Assembly (NCBI GenBank): GCA_963664945.1
Contig: OY761822.1
Location: 406,080 to 470,079, forward strand
Direction: 5' to 3'
Source of the DNA: Gammaproteobacteria bacterium
GTDB taxonomy: Bacteria; Pseudomonadota; Gammaproteobacteria; Steroidobacterales; Rariloculaceae
DNA length: 64,000 nt
Part shown: in pieces, positions 19,876 to 59,316 of the stretch
Layout of the letters: each line of letters begins with the position of its first letter
Numbering within the stretch: position 1 is the first letter of the stretch
Position numbers and translations under genes: made by a program
The notes under the pieces: generated by a model
Seen by the model: only the letters and a program-made list of their open reading frames with translations
Database searches by the model: none
What the model was told of the DNA's origin: nothing

Positions 19876-20766
19876 TCAGGACCTTGGGCTGCGCCCCAGT
19901 TGCTCGATAATCCCCTCCAGCTCATCGACACCGTGATAGCGAATGATGACCCGCCCTCCCCTGGCGCGGTGGTCGATCCGGACCGTAGCGCCGAGCCGGT
20001 CGCTCAACCGGGTTTCCAGGCGCCGCACATCCGGGTCCCGGGCTGGCGCTGGCGGCTGCTTCTTCGCGGGCTGCGCCAACCGGTTCACGGCGCGTTCGGT
20101 TTCACGCACGCTCCAGCCCTGCTGAGCGGCGCGCCTGGCCAGGGCCACCAGCGCCTCGGGGTCCTCCAGCGCCAGCAGGGCTCTCGCATGCCCCATGTTC
20201 AGCGACCTCCCCTCGACCATCTCCTTGACCTCGTCGGGCAGTTCCAGCAACCGCATCAGGTTGGTCACGGCCGCTCTTGAACGACCGACCGCGTCCGCGG
20301 CCTCGGCATGGGTCATATCGAATTCGTTCACCAGGCGCCTCAGCGCCCCGGCTTCCTCAAGCGGATTCAGGTCCTCCCGCTGCATGTTCTCGATCAGCCC
20401 GACGGCCACCGCCGCGCGATCGGGCATGTCCCTGACGAGGGCGGGGACCGCGTCGAGACCGGCCATTTGGGCGGCGCGCCAGCGACGCTCCCCGGCGACA
20501 ATTTCGTAACGGGTTTCGGCTCCGCCTTCCAAGGCGTTCAAGGGACGTACGATGATGGGCTGTACCAGGCCCTCGGAGCGGATCGAGTCCGCCAACTCCT
20601 GAAGCGACTCCTGGCGCATGTCCACGCGCGGCTGGTAGCGGCCCCGTTCCAGGAGGTCGACGGGCACTTCGCGAAGACCATCCTGCGCGTCGGGCTGCGA
20701 TGCCACCGGTTCGGCGCCCAGCAGCGCCTCCAGGCCGCGGCCGAGGCTTTTTCGCTTAGGCCGCAT
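19876..20766 (-). CDS. parB: chromosome partitioning protein ParB
   Basis: KRKSLGRGLEALLG N-terminus, the GERRWRAA box and an HTH. Confidence 0.95.
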   Translation of the reverse strand: MRPKRKSLGRGLEALLGAEPVASQPDAQDGLREVPVDLLERGRYQPRVDMRQESLQELADSIRSEGLVQPIIVRPLNALEGGAETRYEIVAGERRWRAAQMAGLDAVPALVRDMPDRAAVAVGLIENMQREDLNPLEEAGALRRLVNEFDMTHAEAADAVGRSRAAVTNLMRLLELPDEVKEMVEGRSLNMGHARALLALEDPEALVALARRAAQQGWSVRETERAVNRLAQPAKKQPPAPARDPDVRRLETRLSDRLGATVRIDHRARGGRVIIRYHGVDELEGIIEQLGRSPRS

Positions 20767-20916
20767 CGTTCACCGAAGCCGGTCGCGAATACAACGAGGC
20801 CTTGAGGAGGCGGATATCGCGGCAATCGGGTGAGGCAGGCGAGTTGGCCATGTGTTCCTCTCGTCGGCGGGAGCAGGCGCGAGTCATTGTATCGCAAGCC
20901 TGCCTGCGAGCGGCGT

Positions 20917-21696
20917 TCAAAGTGTCGCCGGCACCGCCTCGCGGCGGTTGATTTCACCGGCCAGCGCCAGGTAGGCCAAAGCCCCCGCGGAGGACTTGTC
21001 GTGATAGAGCGCGGGCTTGCCGAAACTGGGCGCTTCGGCCAGGCGCACATTGCGCGGAATCACGGTTCGGAACACTCCGTCGCCGAAATGTTCCAGAAGC
21101 TGGCTGGATACCTCCCTGGTCAGGTTGGTCCTGCCGTCGAACATGGTGCGCAGGATGCCGTGAATCCGCAGCGCCGGATTCACGCTGCGGCGGATCTCCT
21201 CCACGGTCTCCAGCAGCGCCCGCAGCCCTTCCAGCGCCAGGTATTCGCACTGAATGGGTATCAGGACGCCCGTGGCAGCCGCCAGGGCGTTGAGAGTAAG
21301 CATGTTGATAGCGGGCGGGCAATCCACCAGCACGTAGTCGTAGTCCTCTTTCAGCGGCGTGAGGATCTGCTTGAGCCGCCGCTCGCGCCCGGGGTGGGTA
21401 AGGAGCCTGACTTCGGCCACGGTGAGATCCTGATTGGCGGGAAGCACGCCGAATCCTCCCACGCTTGCGGCCCGAACCGCTGCGGACGCATCGCCTTCAC
21501 CCAGGAGCAGGTCGCAGACGGTGACCTCCATGTCCTCCCGGTCCACGCCGCAGCCCACCGTGGCATTGCCCTGGGGGTCCATGTCCACCACCAGCACCCG
21601 CCGGCGCGTGGCGGCCAGGGACGCGGCAAGATTGATGCAGGTGGTGGTCTTGCCCACCCCGCCCTTGCGGTTGGCTATGGCGATGATCTGTGCCAC
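20917..21696 (-). CDS. parA: chromosome partitioning ATPase ParA/Soj
   Basis: (V)AQIIAIANRKGGVGKTTT deviant Walker A. GTG 21696 preferred over the longer track ORF. Confidence 0.93.
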   Translation of the reverse strand: MAQIIAIANRKGGVGKTTTCINLAASLAATRRRVLVVDMDPQGNATVGCGVDREDMEVTVCDLLLGEGDASAAVRAASVGGFGVLPANQDLTVAEVRLLTHPGRERRLKQILTPLKEDYDYVLVDCPPAINMLTLNALAAATGVLIPIQCEYLALEGLRALLETVEEIRRSVNPALRIHGILRTMFDGRTNLTREVSSQLLEHFGDGVFRTVIPRNVRLAEAPSFGKPALYHDKSSAGALAYLALAGEINRREAVPATL

Positions 21697-22158
21697 GGAA
21701 CCCAAGCCCTTTAGCTTGCGCCACAGGATGAGTCGCGGTCGAAAAAGTCGCGCGGACGGGTGACGAAATCGATCGAGAGAATACGGAAAATGAAGCACCG
21801 GTCACGATTCGGCCGCGCCCAGGCTGGACGCCGTCCCGTGCGCGGAACACAAATCTGTAGAGTCTGCGAACAAATTCGGGATTGATTCTGCGGCCAGTCC
21901 GGCATAATTTCATTCCTCATCCTGTTGCGCCTTGTATGGAACATACGTAACTCATTGATTTACGTCCGCGCAATGTTCCTTCCGCGACAGCGGGGCAGCG
22001 TGTTGCGCCGCCGTGGCACGCTTTAGCTTTTGCATGTTCGACTCCGCATATCTTCGCAAGCCGTCCTTCTCCTACAGCGGTATGATGAACCAAGCGGCCT
22101 GCGCCCGTGTGCCTAAATGGCGGAGCTGGTGGGCGCCGCCATCCAAAGGAGACCAAAG

Positions 22159-23181
22159 ATGCCGGAAAAACAAGCCGTTGTTCAAGTCAGAGAGATAGAC
22201 TTTGACACGGACAACCCTCGGATCAAGAAAGCGATCGAGAAATACGGAGGCCAGTTGACCCCGCAGCAGATTCACTTCGCCCTGAGATCCGCTGCAAACG
22301 GTCCCGCTTCTTCCTTCAGCAGTCTCAAGGACTCAGTCCGTGCCAGCAAGGGCATCCTCTCCCCAATAACGCTCATAAGGAAAGGCGGGCGATACATATG
22401 CATCGACGGGAATACAAGGCTTGCCATATACCGGGAATTCGACAAGGAGAACGTCGCGGGCGACTGGTCCCGAATCAAGTCGCTGATAATTGAGGGTGCC
22501 ACGCAACCCGACATCGAGATGCGCCGCGTCTCCGCACATCTGGTCGGGGCGCGGGAGTGGCCCGCATATGAGAAGGCCCGCTATCTTCACTACCTTCGCA
22601 ACGAAAAGCTGTGGGACTATGGCAGGTTGATCGAATTATGCGGGGGCAACAAGGCCGAAATAGAACGGCAAATCGACGCCTACCACGACATGAACGAGTT
22701 CTACCGGGACGTCGTGGATGACACCGCCTTCCAGATCGACCGCTTCAGCGGCTTCGTCGAACTGCAAAAGCCGCGGGTCAAGCAGGCCATTTTCGGCGCT
22801 GGTCTAGGCTTGGAGGACTTTGGCGAGTGGATTCGCGACGGGAAGATATATCGCTTGGAGGATACGCGGAAACTGCCACAAGTGTTGGCGGACGATGAGG
22901 CAAGGAGCATATTTCTTTCGGGAGGCCCCAGATCTATAGAGGACGCAGTTCGTTCGCTGGAGCAAAAGCGCGCGGCGGACCGCAATACTGACAAACTGCT
23001 CCTAATGGACGCATCGATTGCCGAGCTGGCAGATTTGCTAGTCAAACGGATCAACGAAATGCCCTACTCTGAAATCAGGGTTCTCAGAAACCGGGACCGG
23101 GAGGAATCAAGGGAACAGGTAGCCGTATTGGAGGATCTGGCGGTGCGGCTTGGAGGCTTGCTCCACGATGTCGCAGAGTGA
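22159..23181 (+). CDS. ParB/Srx-fold N-terminal domain protein (paralog 1), first gene of the plus operon of the island
   Basis: ATG 22159 follows AAAGGAG. Motifs ..IDFDTDNPR.. and ..ICIDGNTRLAIYREF.. correspond to ParB-N boxes (xxNPR, DG..R). Shares ..W.AYEKA.. with the 28311..29306 protein. Confidence 0.75.
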   Translation: MPEKQAVVQVREIDFDTDNPRIKKAIEKYGGQLTPQQIHFALRSAANGPASSFSSLKDSVRASKGILSPITLIRKGGRYICIDGNTRLAIYREFDKENVAGDWSRIKSLIIEGATQPDIEMRRVSAHLVGAREWPAYEKARYLHYLRNEKLWDYGRLIELCGGNKAEIERQIDAYHDMNEFYRDVVDDTAFQIDRFSGFVELQKPRVKQAIFGAGLGLEDFGEWIRDGKIYRLEDTRKLPQVLADDEARSIFLSGGPRSIEDAVRSLEQKRAADRNTDKLLLMDASIAELADLLVKRINEMPYSEIRVLRNRDREESREQVAVLEDLAVRLGGLLHDVAE

Positions 23182-23611
23182 TGAACATCGCGTGCTGGTG
23201 CTCCATACAGTCGATGCGCTGATCCATCGCCACCCCGAAGTGAACATTGCGGCGGACATTCAGGCGAGCCCGGGCGACCCTGTCCCGCCTTTGATCGACG
23301 GGTTCAGGCCCGACATCTATGCTTGGCTGCCTCGGACTGGCTCGCTCGTCATCGCGGAAGCCAAGACGCACAGGGACATCTGGAACTCCCATACCCGTAG
23401 TCAGGCGCGCTCCTTTATTGCCCATATCGAAGACTCCGCTGGAGGACGGTTTATTCTGTGCGCTTGGGGCCACAACGCAGACCGCGCTAAAACGCTGCTT
23501 CGATTCTTGATGAGGGAACTCCGTCCTACAGGAGTATCGGCTCAGGTGTTCGACGGCTGCGATTTTTGGACGCTTGACGCGAGCAATGGCATCATATGGC
23601 ATTTAGATTAA
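23168..23611 (+). CDS. small PD-(D/E)xK-type putative nuclease
   Basis: GFRPD-x14-EAK (..RPDIYAWLPRTGSLVIAEAKT..) fits the D...ExK restriction-endonuclease-fold core. Overlaps the upstream gene by 14 nt and the downstream gene by 16 nt. Confidence 0.6.
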   Translation: MSQSDEHRVLVLHTVDALIHRHPEVNIAADIQASPGDPVPPLIDGFRPDIYAWLPRTGSLVIAEAKTHRDIWNSHTRSQARSFIAHIEDSAGGRFILCAWGHNADRAKTLLRFLMRELRPTGVSAQVFDGCDFWTLDASNGIIWHLD

Positions 23612-25053
23612 GAAAACCTCCCAGCTTTTCGGTCAAGCACAAAGCCTACGCCTACCAACTTGACGCGGTTCGGGCGGTACGGGACCTTCGCTATGCCGCC
23701 GTATTTCACGAACAAGGACTTGGGAAAACAAAAATTGCCATCGACCTGATGCTGCAATGGCTGGAAGAGGATGCAGTCGATACGGTTTTCGTAGTCACAA
23801 AGAAGACCTTGGTGCAGAACTGGGTGGAGGAACTCGCCGCCCATTCTTACGTTACACCCAGCGTCTTGTCTCAGGACCGGCGCAGAAACAGCATCGCACT
23901 GAATTCGCCGGTGCTCATTTACGTGATGAACTACGAAGTCATCAGCGCCAACCTGAAACTAATTCAAATGTTCCTTGATACATGCCGCGTAGCGGCCATT
24001 CTGGACGAGTCGCAAAAAATAAAAAACCCCGAATCGAAACTCACGCGGAACATGCATTGCCTGGCCGGGCGATTTGAGCGACGAGTCATACTGACGGGCA
24101 CGCCGGTCGCAAATCGACCTTTCGACATCTGGTCGCAAATCAAATTCCTTGACGGTGGGCAATCGCTGGGGCAGTCGTTCGCCGCTTTCAAGGCTGAGAT
24201 GGATTTGCCGCCAAGTTTGGCCGCGAAGGGTGGCTACGGTCGGAAGTTGGCGGAAGTCATGGCGAACATTGGCGATTTCGCAGTCAGGGAAACCAAGGAA
24301 ACGGCGGGAATCCGGCTTCCAGACAAGACTATCGTGCCTCACTTCGTGTGCATGGAACCGGGGCAGCAGGAAGTCTATGACAACTATAAGATCCGGATGC
24401 GCCATGAGTTGCGAACCGGTGACGACTCCTTCATGGACAACGCGGAGCATGTGCTTAAGCGTCTGTTGCGGCTTGTGCAGTGCGCGTCCAACCCCGCGCT
24501 GATTGATTCACAATATGCCGAGGAGCCAGCCAAGCTGCTCAAGCTGCGAGAAGTTCTCGCAGGAGTTCGGACAGACGCGACAAAGGTCATCGTATGGACG
24601 AGCTTCGTTGAGAATGTCGAGTGGCTCAGGCGCAAGTTGTCCCGCTACGCTCCCGCCACCGTGCACGGGGGACATTCAACAGCGGACCGGAACGGCGAAA
24701 TAGGGCGCTTCAAGCAAGATGAGAAGTGCCGCGTGCTTGTCGCCACGCCAGGCGCGGCAAAGGAAGGCCTCACCTTGACCATGGCAACCCACGCCGTGTT
24801 TTTTGATCGCGGCTTCAGCCTGGATGACTACATCCAGGCGCAGGACCGCATTCACCGAATCTCGCAACATGACGAGTGTTTTGTGCATAACCTGATGGTG
24901 GCGGGAAGCATTGATGAATGGGTCGATGCCCTATTGCATGCCAAGCATCACGCTGCCCGGCTGACCCAGGGAGACATGCGGCTTGCGGAGTTTCGGGAAG
25001 CCTACACCTTGGACATAAGCGATGTGCTGAAAGAGGTATTGGGGGAGACATAG
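23596..25053 (+). CDS. compact SNF2-family (SF2) ATPase/translocase
   Basis: Helicase motifs HEQGLGKT (I), ILDESQKIKN (II), LTGTPVANR (III), AAKEGLTLT (V) and QAQDRIHRISQ (VI). 485 aa, with no obvious extra domains. Confidence 0.88.
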   Translation: MAFRLRKPPSFSVKHKAYAYQLDAVRAVRDLRYAAVFHEQGLGKTKIAIDLMLQWLEEDAVDTVFVVTKKTLVQNWVEELAAHSYVTPSVLSQDRRRNSIALNSPVLIYVMNYEVISANLKLIQMFLDTCRVAAILDESQKIKNPESKLTRNMHCLAGRFERRVILTGTPVANRPFDIWSQIKFLDGGQSLGQSFAAFKAEMDLPPSLAAKGGYGRKLAEVMANIGDFAVRETKETAGIRLPDKTIVPHFVCMEPGQQEVYDNYKIRMRHELRTGDDSFMDNAEHVLKRLLRLVQCASNPALIDSQYAEEPAKLLKLREVLAGVRTDATKVIVWTSFVENVEWLRRKLSRYAPATVHGGHSTADRNGEIGRFKQDEKCRVLVATPGAAKEGLTLTMATHAVFFDRGFSLDDYIQAQDRIHRISQHDECFVHNLMVAGSIDEWVDALLHAKHHAARLTQGDMRLAEFREAYTLDISDVLKEVLGET

Positions 25054-25163
25054 CGGCTATCGGCCCATATTCGCCCAACATGACCGGCGAGCCATGGACA
25101 ATCAAGGGGGGCCTTCCAGAACGCGCCCCTGTTTTCCGTCCAGTGACGGATGTAATCGACAGG

Positions 25164-26627
25164 TCAATGGCCACCACTGCGCACTTCTTCCAGCACGGCA
25201 TCGATCATTTCCTTCGCCGCCCGTGGCGATGGCGACGTCTTGGCCAGCGCCCGGAAGACGTTTCGATAAATGTCCGCGTCCTGTTCTTCGAATAGTGCGT
25301 CGCCGTTACGGACCGCGCGGAAACCGTCCAGGCGCGCTTCAGCAGAATCCAGAATGCTCAGATTGCCGTGCTCTGCCTCGCCGCTCTTGACTATAGCGGT
25401 CCGAGCCTGCCGAACGCGCTGTGCTGCGCCCGCTATCAGGCAAGTGGCATCTCGGTGCGTCAAGTATCCAGAGCCGGCAAGCTCGCAAGTGTCGTCAATG
25501 TCAGCTAACAGGGATTGCAATTTGCGCGTCCTGTTACGCTTTTTCGATTCGTTACGGCAACGGTCCGCGATTTTGCGGCAAACCGCCGCGAGATGATTCT
25601 CGAAGTTACGAACATGCGGCCCGGGCTCAAAGTAATCGCGCCGGGCGTTGGGAACCATTTCCGAATCCAGCACATGGATTTCGCCAACACACCACCGATT
25701 GAAGCGCTCTTCCGGAAACAGGTGATCGAAAATCGACTCGTCTCCTATCTGAATGTTCCCCATGCGCGCCCGTATTCCCCGGATTCCCAATCGCTTGGGA
25801 ATTGCGCCGAGATAGGATGAGTGCATCACCCAGCCCACTGCTGCGGCGTTACCTCCATTCAATGAGGGGATGCGCACAGGCTCCAACGCCTTGAAAGGGT
25901 CACTCTTGCCTTCCGAGAAGTCGATCGCGGGACCGTGCGGACGTGTAACCGGCATCGGGTCGCCCGCTATCGTCACGCGCAGGGACAACGGCGAAACATG
26001 CTCTGCAAAGACTTCATCGATCTCTTTCGCGAATGGGTGTCCCGACCGCATCGGAACGGGGCAGACCTCGCCGATATAGGCACGCACCAGCCGCTCATTC
26101 AGTATCGCTCCGGCGACGTGGCGCCCCACTCCGCGAATCTGCGCCTCGAAAAAATGTCCCGGTCGCTCAGTGCCACTGGGAGAGTCAACAGTTACGCAGG
26201 CACGGAGCGCGTCCCAGGTCGGCTTGGCGCCGCGCATGCGCCGATTGATTTCCAAACCGTCCCAAACCACCCTTGTGACGGGGCCGCCTGCGCTGGAGCG
26301 AGTCAGGAAAGTTACGCTATCCGCAAAAGCCAGCCCGGAAAGGCGCCCAATTCCACGAAACCCCCTGTCGCGGCCCAGCGACTTCCGGCTTTGCGCCACG
26401 GGCAGCAGCGCTTGCTCGGCCTCGCCCGGCGAGAGCCCCGGTCCGTCGTCCAGTATGGTGATGCTGGCCTCCCCGCGGTTTACGGTGACAACGACAGACC
26501 CGCGCCGACCGTCGGACTGGGCCAAGGAGTCTGCGGAATTTTGAATATATTCCCGGTAGACCGCCAGCGGATTGTCGTACATGCCGGAAGTGATCAACCG
26601 GAAAATTCCCGCGCCCACGCTGGTCAT
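25164..26627 (-). CDS. GHKL (Bergerat-fold, Hsp90/MORC-like) ATPase
   Basis: N-box REYIQNSADS, G1 box ILDDGPGL, G2 box GFRGIGRLSG. ATG 26627 avoids overlap with the upstream gene. Last gene of the minus operon. Confidence 0.8.
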   Translation of the reverse strand: MTSVGAGIFRLITSGMYDNPLAVYREYIQNSADSLAQSDGRRGSVVVTVNRGEASITILDDGPGLSPGEAEQALLPVAQSRKSLGRDRGFRGIGRLSGLAFADSVTFLTRSSAGGPVTRVVWDGLEINRRMRGAKPTWDALRACVTVDSPSGTERPGHFFEAQIRGVGRHVAGAILNERLVRAYIGEVCPVPMRSGHPFAKEIDEVFAEHVSPLSLRVTIAGDPMPVTRPHGPAIDFSEGKSDPFKALEPVRIPSLNGGNAAAVGWVMHSSYLGAIPKRLGIRGIRARMGNIQIGDESIFDHLFPEERFNRWCVGEIHVLDSEMVPNARRDYFEPGPHVRNFENHLAAVCRKIADRCRNESKKRNRTRKLQSLLADIDDTCELAGSGYLTHRDATCLIAGAAQRVRQARTAIVKSGEAEHGNLSILDSAEARLDGFRAVRNGDALFEEQDADIYRNVFRALAKTSPSPRAAKEMIDAVLEEVRSGGH

Positions 26628-26658
26628 TCTTCCTCGCTCGCCTCCGACATGGCGACCT

Positions 26659-28314
26659 CTATATCGCCTTGCCAGGTTCTGGCAAGACCCGGGTCGCGCT
26701 GCGCCGCCCGTCGGCTTGTTCCGCCGAGAAAAGGCCGGCATCCTCCACAATTTCCTCTTCGGCAGGCAGGTTGCCGCCAACGTCGAAACAGGGCAGCGAG
26801 GGTTGCGCGCCTTCATTCACGCTCCCGATCTTGTTTCTCGTGTCCAGAACGTAAAATCGAATCACCTCGCGGATGCCGCGGTCCACGCCACCGTCGCAAG
26901 CCCATCGGAGGTAATTTACTCGTCGTGCCCCGGAAGAAGCACCGGAGTTGGCAAGCAGTTGGACCAGTTCGCCCTCCTGGCGTTCCGAGAGCCGCCGCCG
27001 TGCGGCCTCGTATTCATCGCGTACCGCCTTGCCAGCCCCTTTCTCATAGTGTTCCCGGTGGAAAATAAAGCCGTGGGGCAAGGTCAGCAATCGCTCGAAT
27101 TCGTGCCTGCCGCCGCCATAGGCGCGTGCGAAAAAATCCGCGCTACCGCTCACAATGCCCCGCGTCGCCTGCAGCATGATCTGAAAGGACCGCAGGAAGT
27201 AGGGGTTCCAATTCCTTCCCACATGCGAACGGTCCTTGAGGTTGACTGGTTGATACCTCATTGGGAAAGACCAGATGCGAATGCCAAGTTCACGATTAAG
27301 TTCCATATTCATTCGCATGCGTTCGTACAAGTCCGCCGGAGAATCCATGAAGTTGTAGAGCATGTAGTTGGACAAGTTGACGATGGCGTTGTCTGCCGCC
27401 ATGCGCACGGCCTTTTCGTAAATCTTGCGCATGCCCACGTGATCGAATGCGATGCGCAGAGGGCTGATGCAGATGGTTGAGATTTCCTTCAGAAACACCG
27501 GGGACTTGACCAATATTCTGGCATCGACACCCTGATTGAAATCCACCCGCCTCTTGACGGTACCGGCTCCGTCTCGCCTGAGCGTTGCGTCGGGAACAAA
27601 TCCCAGATCGCGTATTTCGGCGATGATCTCCTTGAACCGGGGGGCCGCCGTAACGTTGTTGTCCATTAGTATCAGGTCTTTTTTTTCGCCATGCGCCCGT
27701 GCGATACCAGACACCAGCCGGGAAAGCGGCGGCATGTCGCGCTGCGCGCCTTCCAGTTTCGGAACACCGCAGAATCTACATCGCCGCACGCAGCCGCGCG
27801 AGGCATACCCGAAGTAGGCATCGTAAACAGGGTATCGGTACTCCGCCTGATCCAAAATCGAATAGTCGGGGACGAGTTCCTCGATCGGGGCCCCCTGGAG
27901 GTCGGCCGCGCCGAAGTCGCCATCGCCGTCGCTTAGCTGAAGGGATACTGCGGGCGGGCCACTCAACAGACCCTTGATGAACCGCACTCCCGCCCATCTT
28001 GGCTCCTTCAGGTACTCGTCGTGCATCAAAGACGCGGCAATTCCCCCCACGAACACCCTTTCCGGCTGCCCATTGGCGGCTCGAAGCGCAAAGTCTATGG
28101 CAGTAGCTGTTCGACTCCACTCGAAGCTGAACAGCGTGGTCACATACACCCGGTCCCAGGCTCGGTCGAAAACGTGAGGGTCCTCTCCCTTCACGAAGGC
28201 GACGCGGTCGCCGCGCCCTTGGGGGCCGTGATAAGCGGCAAGCTTCATCAGACCCAGAGGTGGGTACTTATTCCGGTAACCCGGTTCGATAAGCAGGATG
28301 TTGCGGCGGCTCAT
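26659..28314 (-). CDS. radical SAM enzyme with B12-binding-like N-terminal domain
   Basis: N-terminus ILLIEPGYRNKYPPLGLMKLAAY (class-B-type Rossmann domain). Cluster motif YASRGCVRRCRFCGV (CxxxCxxC at 27769..27792). ATGA overlap with the upstream ParB-like gene. Confidence 0.85.
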   Translation of the reverse strand: MSRRNILLIEPGYRNKYPPLGLMKLAAYHGPQGRGDRVAFVKGEDPHVFDRAWDRVYVTTLFSFEWSRTATAIDFALRAANGQPERVFVGGIAASLMHDEYLKEPRWAGVRFIKGLLSGPPAVSLQLSDGDGDFGAADLQGAPIEELVPDYSILDQAEYRYPVYDAYFGYASRGCVRRCRFCGVPKLEGAQRDMPPLSRLVSGIARAHGEKKDLILMDNNVTAAPRFKEIIAEIRDLGFVPDATLRRDGAGTVKRRVDFNQGVDARILVKSPVFLKEISTICISPLRIAFDHVGMRKIYEKAVRMAADNAIVNLSNYMLYNFMDSPADLYERMRMNMELNRELGIRIWSFPMRYQPVNLKDRSHVGRNWNPYFLRSFQIMLQATRGIVSGSADFFARAYGGGRHEFERLLTLPHGFIFHREHYEKGAGKAVRDEYEAARRRLSERQEGELVQLLANSGASSGARRVNYLRWACDGGVDRGIREVIRFYVLDTRNKIGSVNEGAQPSLPCFDVGGNLPAEEEIVEDAGLFSAEQADGRRSATRVLPEPGKAI

Positions 28315-29306
28315 CCGGACTTCCGGCGTTTCGCCATCTTTTCGATGCGGCTGAGCGCATTGCGCAGCTTGCGCAGATCATAGTCAAAAGCGTTGAATTC
28401 GCCAGGCTCCAGTTCGCGCACCTGCCCGTCCGAAATATCCTCCAATATCCCTCTGACCCTCTGAAGCGCTTTCCGCGGTTTGCTGATTGAGGCGCGACTG
28501 TAGGCATCGTCGAGCTCAAGGTTGTCACGGACAAGCTTCCTCAAGATTTTCTTTTTCTTTAGGATGACGGGAAGCTTCTTCCTCATCTCCTGCGCGGAAA
28601 AAGGCTTATCTTGTCTCCTGATGCTGTCCCTGATCCACGAGCAAAACTCGTCATCCCGATCCATGGTTGAATTGATTGCCGGGTTGCGCACGATTACATC
28701 GTAGTAGCTGAAATTGGATTGTTCACCATCTTCATTTTGCCGCATGGCCTCAATCACCTTGACGCGCGTTCTTATCGTTTGCTGCGATTCGCCGAACAGC
28801 TTGGCCATGGAGTTATACGACTGCCCTTTCCCGTGACGGACATAGGCGAAATTTGCCTTCTCATACGCCGTCCACTTTGTTTTCCCCTTGATGTGAATCT
28901 GATTGAGGTAGGCGGCCTGCTGCTCTTCCGTCAGACTGCTGACCATATCGCAATCAATCTCGGCCCACTGGCCTTTCCCATCGTCCTTATGCAAGAGCCG
29001 ATAGACAGCGAGCCGCGAGTTGCCCTCAATGACTTCCATGGTGTCCAGACGAACAAGAATTGGCTCCAGTAGCCCACCGTGGCGCTTGATGTCCTCTTGG
29101 AGATTCTTGACGCTCGGCTCCTTTCTCAGCGCCCGGAACATTTCCGCTTGCTGCTCGTCGGGGGTTCTGCTATTGAAGCGGGGCTGGCCCTGAGTAACCG
29201 TGTACACCCTCGGGTTCTCCTTCAGGAACCGCAGACTGAATATATCCATCCGGCCGCTAGCGACGGGAATGGACTGGCCCAAAATTGCTATTGTCTTGTC
29301 CGCCAT
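28311..29306 (-). CDS. ParB/Srx-fold N-terminal domain protein (paralog 2), first gene of the minus operon of the island
   Basis: ATG 29306 follows GGAGG. Motifs ..RFLKENPR.. and ..VIEGNSRLAVYRLL.., then ..WTAYEKA.. Lys-rich C-terminal region. Confidence 0.75.
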   Translation of the reverse strand: MADKTIAILGQSIPVASGRMDIFSLRFLKENPRVYTVTQGQPRFNSRTPDEQQAEMFRALRKEPSVKNLQEDIKRHGGLLEPILVRLDTMEVIEGNSRLAVYRLLHKDDGKGQWAEIDCDMVSSLTEEQQAAYLNQIHIKGKTKWTAYEKANFAYVRHGKGQSYNSMAKLFGESQQTIRTRVKVIEAMRQNEDGEQSNFSYYDVIVRNPAINSTMDRDDEFCSWIRDSIRRQDKPFSAQEMRKKLPVILKKKKILRKLVRDNLELDDAYSRASISKPRKALQRVRGILEDISDGQVRELEPGEFNAFDYDLRKLRNALSRIEKMAKRRKSG

Positions 29307-29693
29307 ACACCTCCCTGGATATGGACCAAACGTAGATGCGGCTTCCTCGGAGCGTGCCTCAGCGAACAATTCGGACGAAAGGCGGGAGTTAACAGGGACA
29401 CCACCAAGCGCACATACCCTTCCGCAAGCCGGGCGGCCCAATGCTCGGGCTGCCAAGACCTACTTGGTCGCTGGTTTCACCACAGCGTCTGGCAAGCGGC
29501 ATCTTAGAGGAATTTCTCCAGAGACCCAAAACCAAGCGCCCCCGTTGAATCGTAGCGTTGCAACTGGCGGAGTGATTCCCGCGCTGTCCAAATCTTCGAT
29601 CTGAATTCAATTGCTTTTCTCCGCATGCTGCCTCCATCGACCATGCAGACTCCCTTGCCAACCCAAACGTTTACCTCCATGTGCACTGGTTCG

Positions 29694-30350
29694 CTACTCC
29701 CACTTTCTGCGCGCAATCAGCAGGCTGCCTCCGGACCAAGGCCCCGTCGGCACAAAACAGCGGACATCGAACCGACCATCCCGAGGCAGCGGCTCGCCGG
29801 CGGTCCGCTTTCCAACCGGCATCAGCAGCACGGTTTCGCGCCCGAAAAGGCCCGCCGAGAGCCGCAGCACCTCCCCCGGAGACGCGACCGCGCGGGCGAG
29901 CAGGGTATCGAACGGCCCAACGTCGACCATGGACTCGACCCGGCAATGTTTCACAGCAATGTTTCCCAGTCCCAGCCGGCCTTGCACATGCCGTAGGAAC
30001 GCGGCGCGTTTGCCGCGACTTTCTATGAGCGTGAAATGCCTGCAAGGCTCCACGACCGCAAGCGGCAACCCGGGCGCTCCGGCGCCGCTGCCGATGTCGG
30101 CGATGCGGGACCCATCGAGCATGGGGCGCAGCGAGAGGCTTTCGATTACGTGGCGGCGGACCATCGCATCAGGGTCGGCGACCGCCGTCAGATTGTGGAC
30201 GCGATTCCAGCGGCGGATTTCGTCAATGTACCCGGCCAAGGCGGCGGCTTGCCCAGGGGTCGCCATCAGTCCCGCGACGGCAAGCAACCGGTCGAGCCGC
30301 TCCCGCGTGACGCCCCCGACGGCTTCAGGCGCGGCAGGTTGATTTCTCAT
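29694..30350 (-). CDS. rsmG: 16S rRNA (guanine527-N7)-methyltransferase
   Basis: ..IADIGSGAGAPGLPLA.. SAM motif and GidB-family length. Start is ATG 30350 or GTG 30395. Confidence 0.9.
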   Translation of the reverse strand: MRNQPAAPEAVGGVTRERLDRLLAVAGLMATPGQAAALAGYIDEIRRWNRVHNLTAVADPDAMVRRHVIESLSLRPMLDGSRIADIGSGAGAPGLPLAVVEPCRHFTLIESRGKRAAFLRHVQGRLGLGNIAVKHCRVESMVDVGPFDTLLARAVASPGEVLRLSAGLFGRETVLLMPVGKRTAGEPLPRDGRFDVRCFVPTGPWSGGSLLIARRKWE

Positions 30351-30395
30351 GACCGCAGTATAGCCCGCGGCGATTCGGCGAACCGCCTGATCCAC

Positions 30396-32243
30396 TCAGC
30401 CCAGCGCCGCCTCACCCGCCCGATGACAGGCCACTAGGTTGCCCCTCAGCGGTCGAAGTTCGGGGACCTCCATCCGGCAGCGTTCCGCGGCGAATCGGCA
30501 CCGGGTCCTGAAGCGGCAGCCAGAGGGCGGGTCGATGGGTGACGGGAGGTCCCCCGGCAGCAACTCCCGGTCCCGCGCCCGCTCCTTGTCGGGGTCGGGA
30601 ATCGGCACCGCGCTGATGAGCGCCCGCGTATAGGGATGGAGGGGTGTTTCGTACAGCGCCTGGCGCGTCGCCACCTCCATGATCTGGCCCAGGTACATCA
30701 CCATGATCCGGTGACTGATGTGGCGCACCACCGCCAGATCGTGAGCGATGAAGATCAGCGCCAGGCCGAATTCGCCCTGAAGATCCATGAGCAGGTTGAT
30801 GATCTGCGCCTGGATGGAGACGTCCAGCGCGCTCACCGGTTCGTCGCAGATGATGACCCTCGGCTTGAGCACCAGGGCCCTGGCGATGCCGATGCGCTGG
30901 CATTGGCCCCCGGAGAACTCGTGGGGATAGCGGTTCAGTTCGCGGCCGCTGAGCCCCACGCGCCTCAGGACCTCCGCCACCCGCGCCCTCACCTCGTCGG
31001 CGTCGAGTTCCGGGAAGTGGGTCCACAGGGGTTCGCTGACGATGTTACCCACCGTCATTCGCGGATTCAGCGAAGCCAGGGGATCCTGAAAAATGACCTG
31101 GGCATCCCGGCGCATCTCCCGCAGCGCCCGCTTGTCCAGTTCGCCCATGCTTTGTCCCAGCAGGCACACGTTTCCAGCGGTGGTCGGCACCAGCCGGAGG
31201 ATTGCCCGGGCCAGTGTCGACTTGCCGCAGCCCGATTCGCCGACAATCCCCAGCGTCTCCCCGGGGCGCAACTCGAGATCCACCCCATCCACGGCCCGCA
31301 GCGGCCGCTTCTTCCCCAGCCAGCCGCCGGTGCGAACCGGGAAATGGACCTTGAGGTCGTCTACGCTCAAGAGCGAGGAATCCACGAGTGGAGCCGCCGG
31401 TTTGGCGGCGGCGTTCGGCCCGGAGACCTCGGTCGCCGGGGCCAAGCGCTCCACTCGCTCCGCATCCAGTCTCGGCACGGCCCTGAGCAGGGCCTTTGTA
31501 TAGGGATGACGGGGGCGGTAGAAGACATCCCGCACGTTCCCCTGCTCCTTCGATTCCCCGTCGTGCATCACGAGGACCCGTTCGCACAACCCGGCGATAA
31601 CACCCAGATCGTGGGTGATGAGCACGATGGCGGTGCCCAGCCGGCGGTTGAGCTCCCGCATCAGGTCTAGGATCTGCGCCTGGACCGTGACATCCAGCGC
31701 CGTCGTGGGCTCATCGGCCACCAGGATCTGCGGGTCCAGGAGCAGGCTCGCCGCGATCATGACCCGCTGGCGCATGCCGCCGGACAGTTCATGAGGATAG
31801 CAGTCCAGCCTTGCGGGGGCGTCGGGAATCTTGACCGCTTCGAGCATCTCCAGGCAGCGCTCCCGGGCCGCCTTGCGGGTGGCCTTGTCGTGCTCGCGCA
31901 CCACCTGGACCATTTGCTCGGCAATGGTCAGGTAGGGGTTCAGCGAGGTCATCGGGTCCTGGAATATCATCGAGATCCGCCGTCCCCGAATTCGCCGCAG
32001 AGCCCCCGGGGAGAGCCTGAGCAAGTCCTGGCCGTCGAAATGAGCCGTGCCGCTGGCCCTGCCGTTGTCGGCCAGCAGCCCCATCAGGCTCAGCACGGAC
32101 TGGCTCTTGCCGGAACCGGACTCGCCGACCACGCCCAGCGCTTCCCCCTGATCCAGGTCGAAACTCAGGTCCCTGACAGCGTGGACCTCGCCGTCGGGGG
32201 TGTCGAACCGGACACTCAGGTTACGGACTTCGAGCAGGCTCAT
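30396..32243 (-). CDS. peptide ABC transporter ATP-binding protein, fused tandem OppD/OppF-like domains
   Basis: Two Walker A motifs ([16 protein letters not shown]), two LSGG(M/Q) signatures, and a C-terminal oligopeptide-type extension. Confidence 0.9.
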
Positions 32244-51576: not shown

Positions 51577-51650
51577 TGGGGGATCGTCTAGTGGTAGGAC
51601 TGCGGACTCTGACTCCGCCAGCGGGGGTTCGAATCCCTCTCCCCCAGCCA
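51577..51650 (+). tRNA. tRNA-Gln (anticodon CTG)
   Basis: Hand-folded cloverleaf: acceptor TGGGGGA/TCCCCCA, anticodon stem GCGGA/TCCGC with loop CTCTGAC, T-loop TTCGAAT, encoded CCA. Confidence 0.9.
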
Positions 51651-53572: not shown

Positions 53573-53690
53573 CGCGCGGCGCCCGGGCGCGGAGGCCGGA
53601 AGATCGCGGAAGCGGAAACGCTCCCGGCGGGCGCGGCGTTCCTGGCAGGCGACAAGCTCCCGGCGGGCGCGGCGTTCCCGGAAGGAAAAA

Positions 53691-53876
53691 CGCTCCCCGT
53701 TGGCGCCGTTGCGGACTGTTGCCCTCGAACCGGAGCACCAGGTGGGGTAAGCCGTGGTGGTTGCAGGCTTCCCGGCCGGGCCGGATCTGCACAACGCCAC
53801 CGACAGAACACAACCCCGAGGTCAGGATTTAGGGTCGAAAGTCTGTCCAATCCGCATCGCACGCTACAGGGAGCGC
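53691..53876 (-). ncRNA. ssrS: 6S RNA
   Basis: Lies between zapA and ygfA, as in E. coli. The 5' CGCUCCCUGUAGCG.. pairs with the 3' ..ACGGGGAGCG. Internal GGAAGCCU and GGUUCGAGGGCAACAGUCCGC blocks match E. coli GAGAAGCCU and GGUUCAAGGGUUACAGCCUGC. Ends are approximate, within about 5 nt. Confidence 0.8.
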
Positions 53877-59114: not shown

Positions 59115-59316
59115 GGACGAATCGGTCGGAGAGACTTCGCTCGACAGCGCCCCTGAAGGGTGCCGTGGGCGAAGCGCCGAAGGCGCAACCTCCGCTTGGA
59201 AACGCTCAGGCAAACGGACGGCGGATTCTGATTGGCTCTGGAGAGCGGCCCCGCGGGGCCCACCGAAGGTGAGCGGCGCAACGCGCCTAATCTCTCAGGT
59301 AACCGGACAGAGAAGC
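59115..59316 (+). promoter_or_regulatory. tandem glycine riboswitch
   Basis: Two aptamers, each with GGAGAG ... (C)ACCGAAGG..GCAA ... CTCAGG(C/T)AA..GGAC(G/A)G signatures, upstream of gcvT. Confidence 0.85.

Follow-up and report, generated by a model that had tools for sequence, protein, structure and literature searches.

We analysed a stretch of 64,000 nucleotides (nt) from a gammaproteobacterial genome (GenBank assembly GCA_963664945.1, contig OY761822.1, positions 406,080 to 470,079 of the forward strand), hereafter called the window, and focused on six genes at window positions 22159-29306 that form a compact cassette between parA and rsmG. An original prediction, made from the sequence alone, had proposed these genes as a candidate undescribed defence or DNA-modification system. 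All six open reading frames (ORFs) proved intact, with the coordinates given below, and every motif that had been quoted for them was recovered (RPD-x14-EAK, GLGKT, CVRRCRFC, EYIQNSADS, DDGPGL and GFRGIGRLSG).

The plus strand carries gene A (22159-23181, 340 amino acids, aa), which encodes a first ParB_N-like protein with the motifs FDTDNPRI and IDGNTRL ahead of a C-terminal half that is helical, gene B (23168-23611, 147 aa), a small putative PD-(D/E)xK nuclease with a RecB/Cas4-like order of motifs, and gene C (23596-25053, 485 aa), a minimal SNF2-family ATPase/translocase with GLGKT, DESQ and QAQDRIHR. The minus strand carries gene F (28311-29306, 331 aa), a second ParB_N-like protein with the motifs FLKENPRVY and EGNSRL followed by a helix-turn-helix (HTH) region, gene E (26659-28314, 551 aa), a radical S-adenosylmethionine (radical-SAM) enzyme with an N-terminal Rossmann (B12-binding-like) domain, a CX3CX2C core, a helical C-domain and an acidic tail, and gene D (25164-26627, 487 aa from an internal ATG), a GHKL (Bergerat-fold) ATPase with an HtpG/Hsp90-like N-domain. 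As predicted, neighbouring ORFs overlap (A/B by 14 nt, B/C by 16 nt and F/E by a 4-nt ATGA), the stop codons of C and D face each other across a gap of 110 nt (25054-25163), and the G+C content is lower in the cassette (0.51-0.64) than in most of the flanks (0.64-0.70). The window cassette contained no methyltransferase, integrase or transposase, again as announced, and no tRNA was found at its ends. The predicted catalytic motifs are all intact.

We recovered the same set of genes in many other genomes. A scan of 185,579 species genomes anchored on E returned 556 relatives, the best 80 of which were examined for lineage and gene content. These best 80 came from at least ten lineages (Dehalococcoidia, Binatia, Nitrospirales, Latescibacterota, Poribacteria, Gemmatimonadota, Acidobacteriota, Acidimicrobiia, Thermodesulfobacteriota, Alpha- and Gammaproteobacteria); in tblastn searches with the window proteins, D adjoined E in nearly all of them and the full set was present in about 55 of the 80. 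In metagenome loci anchored on A, the genes A, B, C and F were always contiguous, and E and D were present on every contig that was long enough, bar a few that were short or of variant type (L104, L160, L166). Gene order and identity were then compared across 80 fetched loci that hold all six genes. The order A>B>C>F>E>D, a single co-directional operon, occurred in 56 loci and E>D>A>B>C>F in 11, and the remaining loci had E-D either divergent upstream (8) or convergent downstream (5). The flanks were unrelated between loci, 346 of the 382 neighbour clusters being singletons. That the six genes are kept together through rearrangements and amid unrelated flanks is strong evidence of functional coupling. 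The search for co-occurrence over genomes, which the original prediction had called for, thus established the six genes as a conserved, co-inherited unit, far beyond chance in view of the 80 complete loci.

The internal division of the cassette differed from the one first proposed. The layout in two convergent operons was confirmed in the window; the split into two trios was not, since it followed from the unusual gene order of the window (A>B>C> <D<E<F), which we saw again only in one other locus, L090. Co-divergence and contiguity instead delimit a ParB1-nuclease-SNF2-ParB2 module and a radical-SAM-GHKL module. Across the 80 complete loci, the identities of A, B, C and F to the window proteins co-varied tightly (r 0.89-0.96; F with A, B and C, r 0.90-0.96), as did those of E and D (r 0.85), and the correlation between the two modules was lower (r 0.40-0.56). 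Mean identity in the same loci was highest for E (63%) and ranged from 39 to 56% for the other five proteins, F and B being the lowest (about 40%). The adjacency of the radical-SAM and GHKL genes persisted down to 45% radical-SAM identity, with D always beside E.

The related locus L090 lies on a 4.6-Mb contig, its radical-SAM protein being 93% identical to E. An independent gene call gave the same six products with identical lengths, and the cassette occupies the same place, between gidB/rsmG and parA. The ratio of nonsynonymous to synonymous substitution rates (dN/dS) between the window and L090 was 0.07-0.24 for the six genes (A 0.067, B 0.24), all of which are under purifying selection. 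F was the most diverged of the six (78.9% aa identity, dN 0.12). Synonymous divergence (dS) was 0.23-0.71 in the cassette and 0.43-0.71 in the flanking housekeeping genes, and the cassette appears to have been vertically inherited since the split between the window organism and L090.

The partners of E and D varied among loci. The invariant core is the pair formed by the radical-SAM enzyme and the GHKL ATPase, and the ParB-nuclease-SNF2-ParB block is one of several exchangeable nuclease modules; the radical-SAM proteins are 64-68% identical across variants in similar hosts. In 12 loci from metagenome-assembled genomes (MAGs) and nine IMG/VR contigs, the core stands beside a NurA-like protein, HerA (2e-26 to PDB 7f6d) and a second full-length GHKL paralog (hhalign 5.7e-44). 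The gene order in this sister system is NurA-like, HerA, GHKL paralog, radical-SAM and usually a second GHKL, with neither ParB nor SNF2 (L018 5584-13147; L087; L188, L191, L194, L196, L197, L199, L204, L205, L216). A shortened radical-SAM relative also lies beside HerA and NurA in Marinitoga camini virus 1. In other loci the core is joined by a 770-aa fusion of a DndB/DpdB-like protein with HEPN, which matches Pfam DndB, and HEPN is the sole effector at L001. The conjugative plasmid pNL1 of Novosphingobium aromaticivorans (L091, record 114946-125348) carries PIN_8, GHKL, DndB/DpdB-like, radical-SAM and GHKL genes, in this order, and its other strand encodes a DndB-HEPN protein. This last gene is probably Saro_3948, which appears as a ParB-HEPN fusion in PMC3710099. 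Loci similar to that of pNL1 were observed on plasmids of Rhizobium, Mesorhizobium, Bradyrhizobium, Agrobacterium and Roseomonas.

We compared the proteins with PADLOC-DB v2, NCBIfam r20 (June 2026), Pfam and PHROGs. PADLOC identified no named system in the variant modules, and for the NurA/HerA sister system it gave nothing above a weak partial TmtA match of the second GHKL protein. The DndB-type proteins encoded directly upstream of the radical-SAM gene in variants matched PADLOC DpdB (7e-11 and 1.7e-17). Two seven-gene IMG/VR copies (L174 8995-17600; L214 4965-13200) have a DndB/DpdB-type gene between F and the radical-SAM gene, and thus carry three ParB-fold proteins. The N6/N4 DNA methyltransferase of L004/L005 (4451-5449, upstream, opposite strand) was considered as a conserved part and rejected, not being conserved in the other loci; it is probably an unrelated neighbour.

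The radical-SAM enzyme E matched PHROG_9298 radical SAM (1.3e-39) and scored 23.4 with Pfam Radical_SAM, under the curated cut-off of 29.5. Its cysteines C175, C179 and C182 did not vary among 45 sequences with identities as low as 32%, and the E family had no invariant cysteine outside CX3CX2C. A first AlphaFold model from a shallow alignment was unusable (predicted local distance difference test, pLDDT, 54.6) and was replaced by one based on an alignment of 45 diverse homologs (pLDDT 86.3). Foldseek searches with this model retrieved MgmA (9ccb, 1.3e-11) and TsrM (6wte, 1.6e-10), then MiaB/RimO, and 7mjz (1.4e-9), the best structural matches having only 13-16% sequence identity and TM-scores of only 0.4-0.58; the N-domain alone also matched the B12-binding protein AerR. 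In the model, the CX3CX2C motif is placed in a partial TIM barrel matching solved radical-SAM enzymes, which assigns E to the radical-SAM superfamily, and the predicted fold resembles that of the cobalamin-type (class B) radical-SAM methylases, cobalamin use itself being a prediction only. Its C-domain is all-helical in the model, where MiaB and RimO have a TRAM domain. We considered E as a MiaB/RimO methylthiotransferase and rejected this assignment: the auxiliary-cluster cysteines of the N-domain are missing, and an enzyme with no invariant cysteines besides CX3CX2C is not a methylthiotransferase.

Homologs of E are 64-93% identical across many lineages. Clustering at 50% identity yielded 252 clusters at E<1e-30 and 1,683 at E<1e-3, a level at which the radical-SAM family of E forms a distinct group by sequence, and more than 7,000 radical-SAM relatives were counted at the 90% clustering level. 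At its C-terminus (window 26659-26760), a stretch of about 55 residues is disordered in the model and contains, at residues ~517-529, a nearly invariant tail motif, (E/D)-I-V-E-D-A-G-L-F (IVEDAGLF in the window). This tail recalls docking tails, for example the one at the C-terminus of SSB, and might serve to tether E to D, A or F.

For D, the claim of a GHKL ATPase held. Pfam HATPase_c_3 matched at 6e-9 (36.5 bits, cut-off 25), and the residues E26, N30, D33, D60xGxG (D60, G62, G64) and G92xG94 are invariant in the family, so that D can be assigned by its N-box, G1 and G2 motifs to the Bergerat-fold GHKL proteins. MORC-likeness was not demonstrated, the nearest sequence relatives being HtpG/Hsp90 N-domains (PDB HtpG, 2.7e-11, N-domain only; NCBIfam HSP90-family PRK14083, 5e-9, far under its cut-off). 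PMC2292703 defines the MORC/paraMORC subfamily by a GhXhhpXXRhl motif plus an S5-fold domain. The C-terminal 350 residues of D are conserved, with the motif RWCxGEI...PNxRRDYFE, and matched nothing in the databases. The block encoded at window 25164-25900 (GIRGIRARxGNIQIGD...RFNRWCVGEIHxLD...VPNxRRDYFEP) is strongly conserved and common to D and the second GHKL paralog. Its PNxRRDxFE segment recalls what we take to be the catalytic-arginine loop of the Hsp90 middle domain (LNxSRE).

The SNF2 assignment of C was clear-cut. We obtained matches to Pfam SNF2-rel_dom (8.5e-27, 94.4 bits, cut-off 24.9) and Helicase_C (4.8e-15, 56.2 bits, cut-off 23.5), and motifs I, II and VI can be read in the sequence as GLGKT, DESQ and QxxDRxHR, all of which places C in the SNF2 family. 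C also matched PHROG_62 DNA helicase (5e-96) and, over the helicase parts only, the PADLOC profiles of ZorD (3e-41), DpdE (9.5e-35) and DrmD (1e-16).

The two ParB-like proteins are paralogs (hhalign 99.7%, E 2.6e-27). Pfam ParB_N matched 10 of 25 members of the A family, and the window's own A and F scored under the Pfam thresholds; A had a weak ParB match in PDB (4umk, E 0.011), F matched a PHROG ParB-like partition protein (7e-8), and HTH/sigma70_r4 matches occurred among members of the F family. D16, N19-P20-R21 and G84-N85-T86-R87 are invariant in the A family, and the NPR and G-N-(T/S)-R motifs are kept in both A and F. Taken together, these findings place A and F among the ParB/Srx (ParB_N) proteins, with their NTP-binding arginine motif (GxxR; NTP, nucleoside triphosphate). 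We also considered A and F as DndB/DGQHR proteins, an identity suspected from the DGNTR motif. Pfam DndB had no match in A, F or their relatives, and an hhalign comparison of the F profile with the DndB-type protein of pNL1 gave no similarity, which again argues against DndB. A 22-nt inverted repeat, 86% complementary, at 22556-22577 (gene A) and 28855-28876 (gene F) was rejected as a mobile-element end; it encodes the W-x-A-Y-E-K-A motif common to the two paralogs.

In an alignment of 30 homologs of B, H7, P48-D49, E64 and Q79 were invariant and K66 and F83 nearly so. B had no match in Pfam, PADLOC, NCBIfam, PHROG or PDB, and PDB sequence searches with B, F and E gave no informative match.

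The cassette is horizontally mobile cargo, as seen in its low G+C content, its spread over lineages and its carriage on plasmids and viral contigs. Radical-SAM identity was 64-69% between MAGs of at least ten lineages (L007-L086), and the distribution was patchy, with relatives in about 556 of the 185,579 species genomes. We found relatives on 12 plasmids, seven of them conjugative, and on 49 predicted viral or proviral contigs of IMG/VR, some of which hold complete six-gene sets. On pNL1, the locus lies among plasmid accessory genes (reverse transcriptase, DUF3768, SOS-response-associated peptidase). In the window and most MAG loci, the cassette is chromosomal and surrounded by housekeeping genes, and its vicinity lacks genes for an integrase, a transposase or conjugation. 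Names of sponge symbionts occur among the records (Ca. Poribacteria, Ca. Spongiihabitans thiooxidans, Ca. Poriferihabitaceae), and the overall pattern suggests niche-wide horizontal spread in sponge microbiomes, a link that is partly an inference, as most of the record titles do not give the source of the MAG.

In the window, the cassette is flanked by parA/parB/atp on one side and by rsmG/opp on the other. The mnmG-rsmG-parA-parB-atp cluster is split twice here (window 19876-32243) and in L090, by the cassette between rsmG and parA and by an opp-type ABC peptide transporter operon between mnmG and rsmG. On the left, a 360-nt intergenic spacer (21799-22158) separates parA from A and contains a terminator-like hairpin of 11 pairs with a T-rich tail on the strand of A (21997-22022, plus strand). 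An AAGGAG ribosome-binding site (22146-22151) stands 7 nt before the ATG of A at 22159, and a longer ORF opens at 22117. On the right, the intergenic region between F and rsmG (29307-29693), a junction that L090 shares, holds a Shine-Dalgarno-like GGGAGG directly upstream of the F start (29310-29315, minus strand). A search of the cassette ends for direct or inverted repeats that would mark an insertion found none; the 110-nt gap had no consensus terminator and no Rfam match, and the cassette as a whole neither an Rfam match nor a sigma-70 consensus promoter. Elsewhere in the window, Rfam identified a 6S RNA (53690-53875, minus strand), a tRNA (51577-51647, plus strand) and a glycine riboswitch (59116-59231, plus strand), unrelated to the cassette.

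We consider the cassette most likely to be a new anti-phage or anti-plasmid system that works as one functional unit. For its mechanism, we tentatively favour a modification-restriction scheme in the style of Dpd and Dnd, a serious possibility that still falls short of probable, in which the radical-SAM enzyme would mark host DNA and a ParB-guided SNF2/nuclease pair would attack DNA without the mark. E would put a covalent mark on host DNA by radical-SAM group-transfer chemistry, as the B12-type methylases do on their substrates, assisted by ATP-driven clamping by D and brought to DNA by the translationally coupled F, or by the DpdB-like protein in variants. The paralogous NTP-binding A and F would be loaded onto DNA, perhaps as a clamp formed by their heterodimer, and would recruit C as the SNF2 motor and B as the nuclease for translocation and the cutting of unmarked DNA. 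Several observations speak for such a scheme. The best structural matches of E, MgmA and TsrM, are C-methylating B12-type radical-SAM enzymes, DpdB-matching proteins stand directly upstream of E in variants, and C is similar to DpdE, ZorD and DrmD in their helicase parts. E is by far the most conserved protein, in keeping with a substrate that does not vary, such as DNA, and a cassette with a translocase and a nuclease and no methyltransferase leaves E as the only candidate for self-marking. The more specific proposal that the radical-SAM-GHKL pair covalently modifies genomic DNA as a restriction-like self-mark, for instance by alkylation of a base or sugar at an unactivated carbon, is one that we regard as possible, if somewhat unlikely. 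If true, it would reveal an epigenetic DNA mark of a new chemical class, together with the first 'modification subunit' of the radical-SAM type, and the mark would have spread horizontally through sponge-symbiont, soil and plasmid pools together with plug-in modules (ParB-SNF2-nuclease, NurA-HerA, PIN and HEPN).

Several points weigh against modification and restriction. We know of no radical-SAM enzyme that marks DNA for self/non-self discrimination; MgmA acts on protein and TsrM on free tryptophan, neither on DNA, and Pfam B12-binding had no match in E. HEPN and PIN domains, which are commoner in abortive-infection systems, serve as partner effectors in some loci, and the core does not depend on a ParB-like protein, since one variant lacks such proteins altogether. 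B is a putative PD-(D/E)xK nuclease, its fold being read from its motifs. Among the immediate neighbours in other genomes (n=77), most are housekeeping genes; AbiEii, type II methyltransferase, TmtA, PDC-S01, DpdB, LmuB and transposase occurred as isolated matches, for which no background rate was computed, and an enrichment in defence islands was not evident. Finally, another nuclease module was present in 20 of the 24 loci that had seemed to hold E and D only, the pair being almost never orphan. This last observation is also what would be expected of the main rival, a sensor or signalling core. In such a core, the radical-SAM-GHKL pair would sense infection or produce a small molecule or modified nucleotide that activates, or acts jointly with, the attached nuclease module, with no self-marking. 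Viperin-type radical-SAM enzymes make 3'-deoxy-3',4'-didehydro-nucleoside triphosphates (ddhNTPs), and ParB-fold proteins are NTP binders, which makes a nucleotide-derived ligand conceivable. The conservation of the core beside interchangeable nuclease modules, the fact that HEPN can be the sole effector (L001) and that a PIN_8 effector is present on pNL1, the lack of any clearly orphan E-D pair and the carriage on prophage-like contigs would all suit such a core. However, E is not viperin-like (it has no PADLOC viperin match, and its fold is nearest to the B12-type methylases and methylthiotransferases), and searches of the six proteins with Pfam, PADLOC and NCBIfam yielded neither a cyclase nor a receptor nor any other domain known from signalling. 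Phosphorothioate (PT) modification modules also pair with alternative restriction modules (PMC10853773), so that modularity cannot separate the modification scheme from a sensor; on balance we judge the sensor possible, if somewhat unlikely.

Carriage on plasmids and phages could also point to a function for the mobile elements themselves, such as the exclusion of rivals, anti-restriction or the protection of incoming element DNA, rather than to host immunity. Relatives lie on the 12 plasmids (seven conjugative) and 49 viral or proviral contigs mentioned above, the pNL1 copy sits among accessory genes, and ParB/Srx proteins are known to act in conflicts among conjugative plasmids (Maindola et al., 2014, as cited in PMC10853773). 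The window and most MAG copies are nevertheless chromosomal, among housekeeping genes and with no mobility genes nearby, and the dS values of the cassette and its flanks (0.23-0.71 vs 0.43-0.71) indicate apparent vertical inheritance since the split from L090, which makes an element function improbable. The same housekeeping neighbourhoods, together with strong purifying selection, a very conserved radical-SAM protein and the adjacency of the window cassette to parAB, would fit a machine outside genetic conflict, namely mobile DNA repair, replication restart or chromosome maintenance. GHKL MutL, SNF2 and NurA-HerA are repair-type proteins, and spore photoproduct lyase is a radical-SAM enzyme of DNA repair. 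Such a machine is hard to reconcile with the patchy distribution, cross-phylum transfer, low G+C and plasmid or prophage carriage, or with the HEPN and PIN effectors that are swapped in, and only in the window and L090 does the cassette adjoin parAB, all other flanks being different; we therefore hold it to be quite improbable. The two convergent operons of the window could suggest a chance juxtaposition, or else a cluster for peptides made on the ribosome and modified after translation (RiPPs) or other natural products built around the B12-type radical-SAM enzyme, sponge symbionts being known for RiPP clusters with such enzymes and the nearest solved folds of E modifying a protein and an amino acid. 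Both possibilities are effectively refuted: all six genes are kept in 80 loci, in 56 of them as a single co-directional operon, no conserved precursor peptide, protease or transporter was found in the unrelated flanks, and all partner proteins are predicted DNA or NTP enzymes.

If the cassette is indeed a defence system, it would add a widespread family to the prokaryotic immune repertoire. It also raises the questions of whether DNA can receive a self-mark from a radical-SAM enzyme, which role paired ParB-fold NTPases have beyond chromosome partition and how one conserved core was rewired to four different nuclease effector modules. Cultured carriers of the variants (Novosphingobium aromaticivorans DSM 12444 with pNL1, Rhizobium, including R. 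leguminosarum WSM1325, and Mesorhizobium with their plasmids) make experiments feasible.

The original prediction had not recognised the combination as any named system and had described its parts as common building blocks of conflict systems, and both statements agree with our comparisons. PADLOC gave only the partial helicase matches to ZorD, DpdE and DrmD, all NCBIfam scores were far under their cut-offs, and the Pfam matches were to generic domains. On plasmids, the Prokaryotic Genome Annotation Pipeline (PGAP) labels go no further than 'radical SAM protein', 'ATP-binding protein' and 'DGQHR domain-containing protein'. Neither these databases and labels nor a search of the full-text literature on radical-SAM enzymes with these partners gave a name for the gene set or its radical-SAM-GHKL core, subscription-only papers and newer DefenseFinder models lying outside this comparison. 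The parts consulted of PMC10853773, PMC7641849, PMC2292703, PMC3710099, PMC3226654 and PMC3632139 do not link this radical-SAM enzyme to these partners.

Dpd, the 7-deazaguanine system of DNA modification and restriction (DpdA/B/C plus DpdD-K), is likewise a multi-gene cassette with a ParB-fold NTPase beside its modifier, DpdB being a ParB-like ATPase required for DNA modification, and DpdB-matching proteins adjoin the radical-SAM gene in variants. C matches the SNF2-type helicase DpdE over the C-terminal helicase region only (NCBIfam DpdE, 38.7 for a cut-off of 500). In contrast to Dpd, the six proteins have no match to DpdA/TGT (tRNA-guanine transglycosylase) in PADLOC, Pfam or NCBIfam, the cassette has neither DpdC nor preQ0 synthesis genes, the window A and F have no PADLOC DpdB match, and the putative modifier is a radical-SAM enzyme paired with a GHKL ATPase. 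With the phosphorothioate systems Dnd and Ssp (DndABCDE with DndFGH, PbeABCD or SspE), the loci share a ParB-superfamily partner (DndB; variant partner proteins match Pfam DndB), the pairing of a conserved module with alternative ones (PMC10853773) and horizontal mobility, the link through the ParB fold being a distant one. They differ in that searches of the cassette with PADLOC, NCBIfam and Pfam gave no cysteine desulfurase (DndA/IscS), PP-loop DndC, DndD/E, DndFGH or SspABCD, and the A and F families match Pfam ParB_N and not DndB. As in Zorya and DISARM, a SNF2 translocase is encoded beside a (putative) nuclease. However, the cassette has no ZorA/B/C, no ZorAB-like ORFs were found at 22159-29306, and C matches ZorD only partially; DrmA/B/C and a methyltransferase are lacking as well, and the matches of C to DrmD are only weak and partial. 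With NCBIfam Zorya- and DISARM-type families, C scored 65.6 for a cut-off of 1500 (Zorya) and 37.8 for a cut-off of 610. C is a bare 485-aa helicase core that lacks the fused Mrr nuclease.

The two core proteins have their own counterparts. E shares with the class B radical-SAM methyltransferases MgmA and TsrM an N-terminal Rossmann domain and a radical-SAM barrel with CX3CX2C, and differs from them and from MiaB/RimO in its additional helical C-domain and acidic tail. To our knowledge, no radical-SAM enzymes other than the prokaryotic viperins (pVips) belong to a named anti-phage system; pVips act as single genes of a different radical-SAM subfamily, with a fold that has no N-terminal Rossmann domain, and E has no PADLOC viperin match. 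D resembles the paraMORC/MORC GHKL proteins of restriction-modification contexts in its Bergerat fold and in its linkage with helicases and nucleases, and a radical-SAM partner is not mentioned in the portion consulted of the study describing them (Iyer, Abhiman and Aravind, 2008, PMC2292703). A core made of a radical-SAM enzyme of B12-type fold and an Hsp90-like ATPase is thus unprecedented among described systems, none of which has a radical-SAM-GHKL core: the building blocks and likely logic of the cassette are familiar, and its composition is new.

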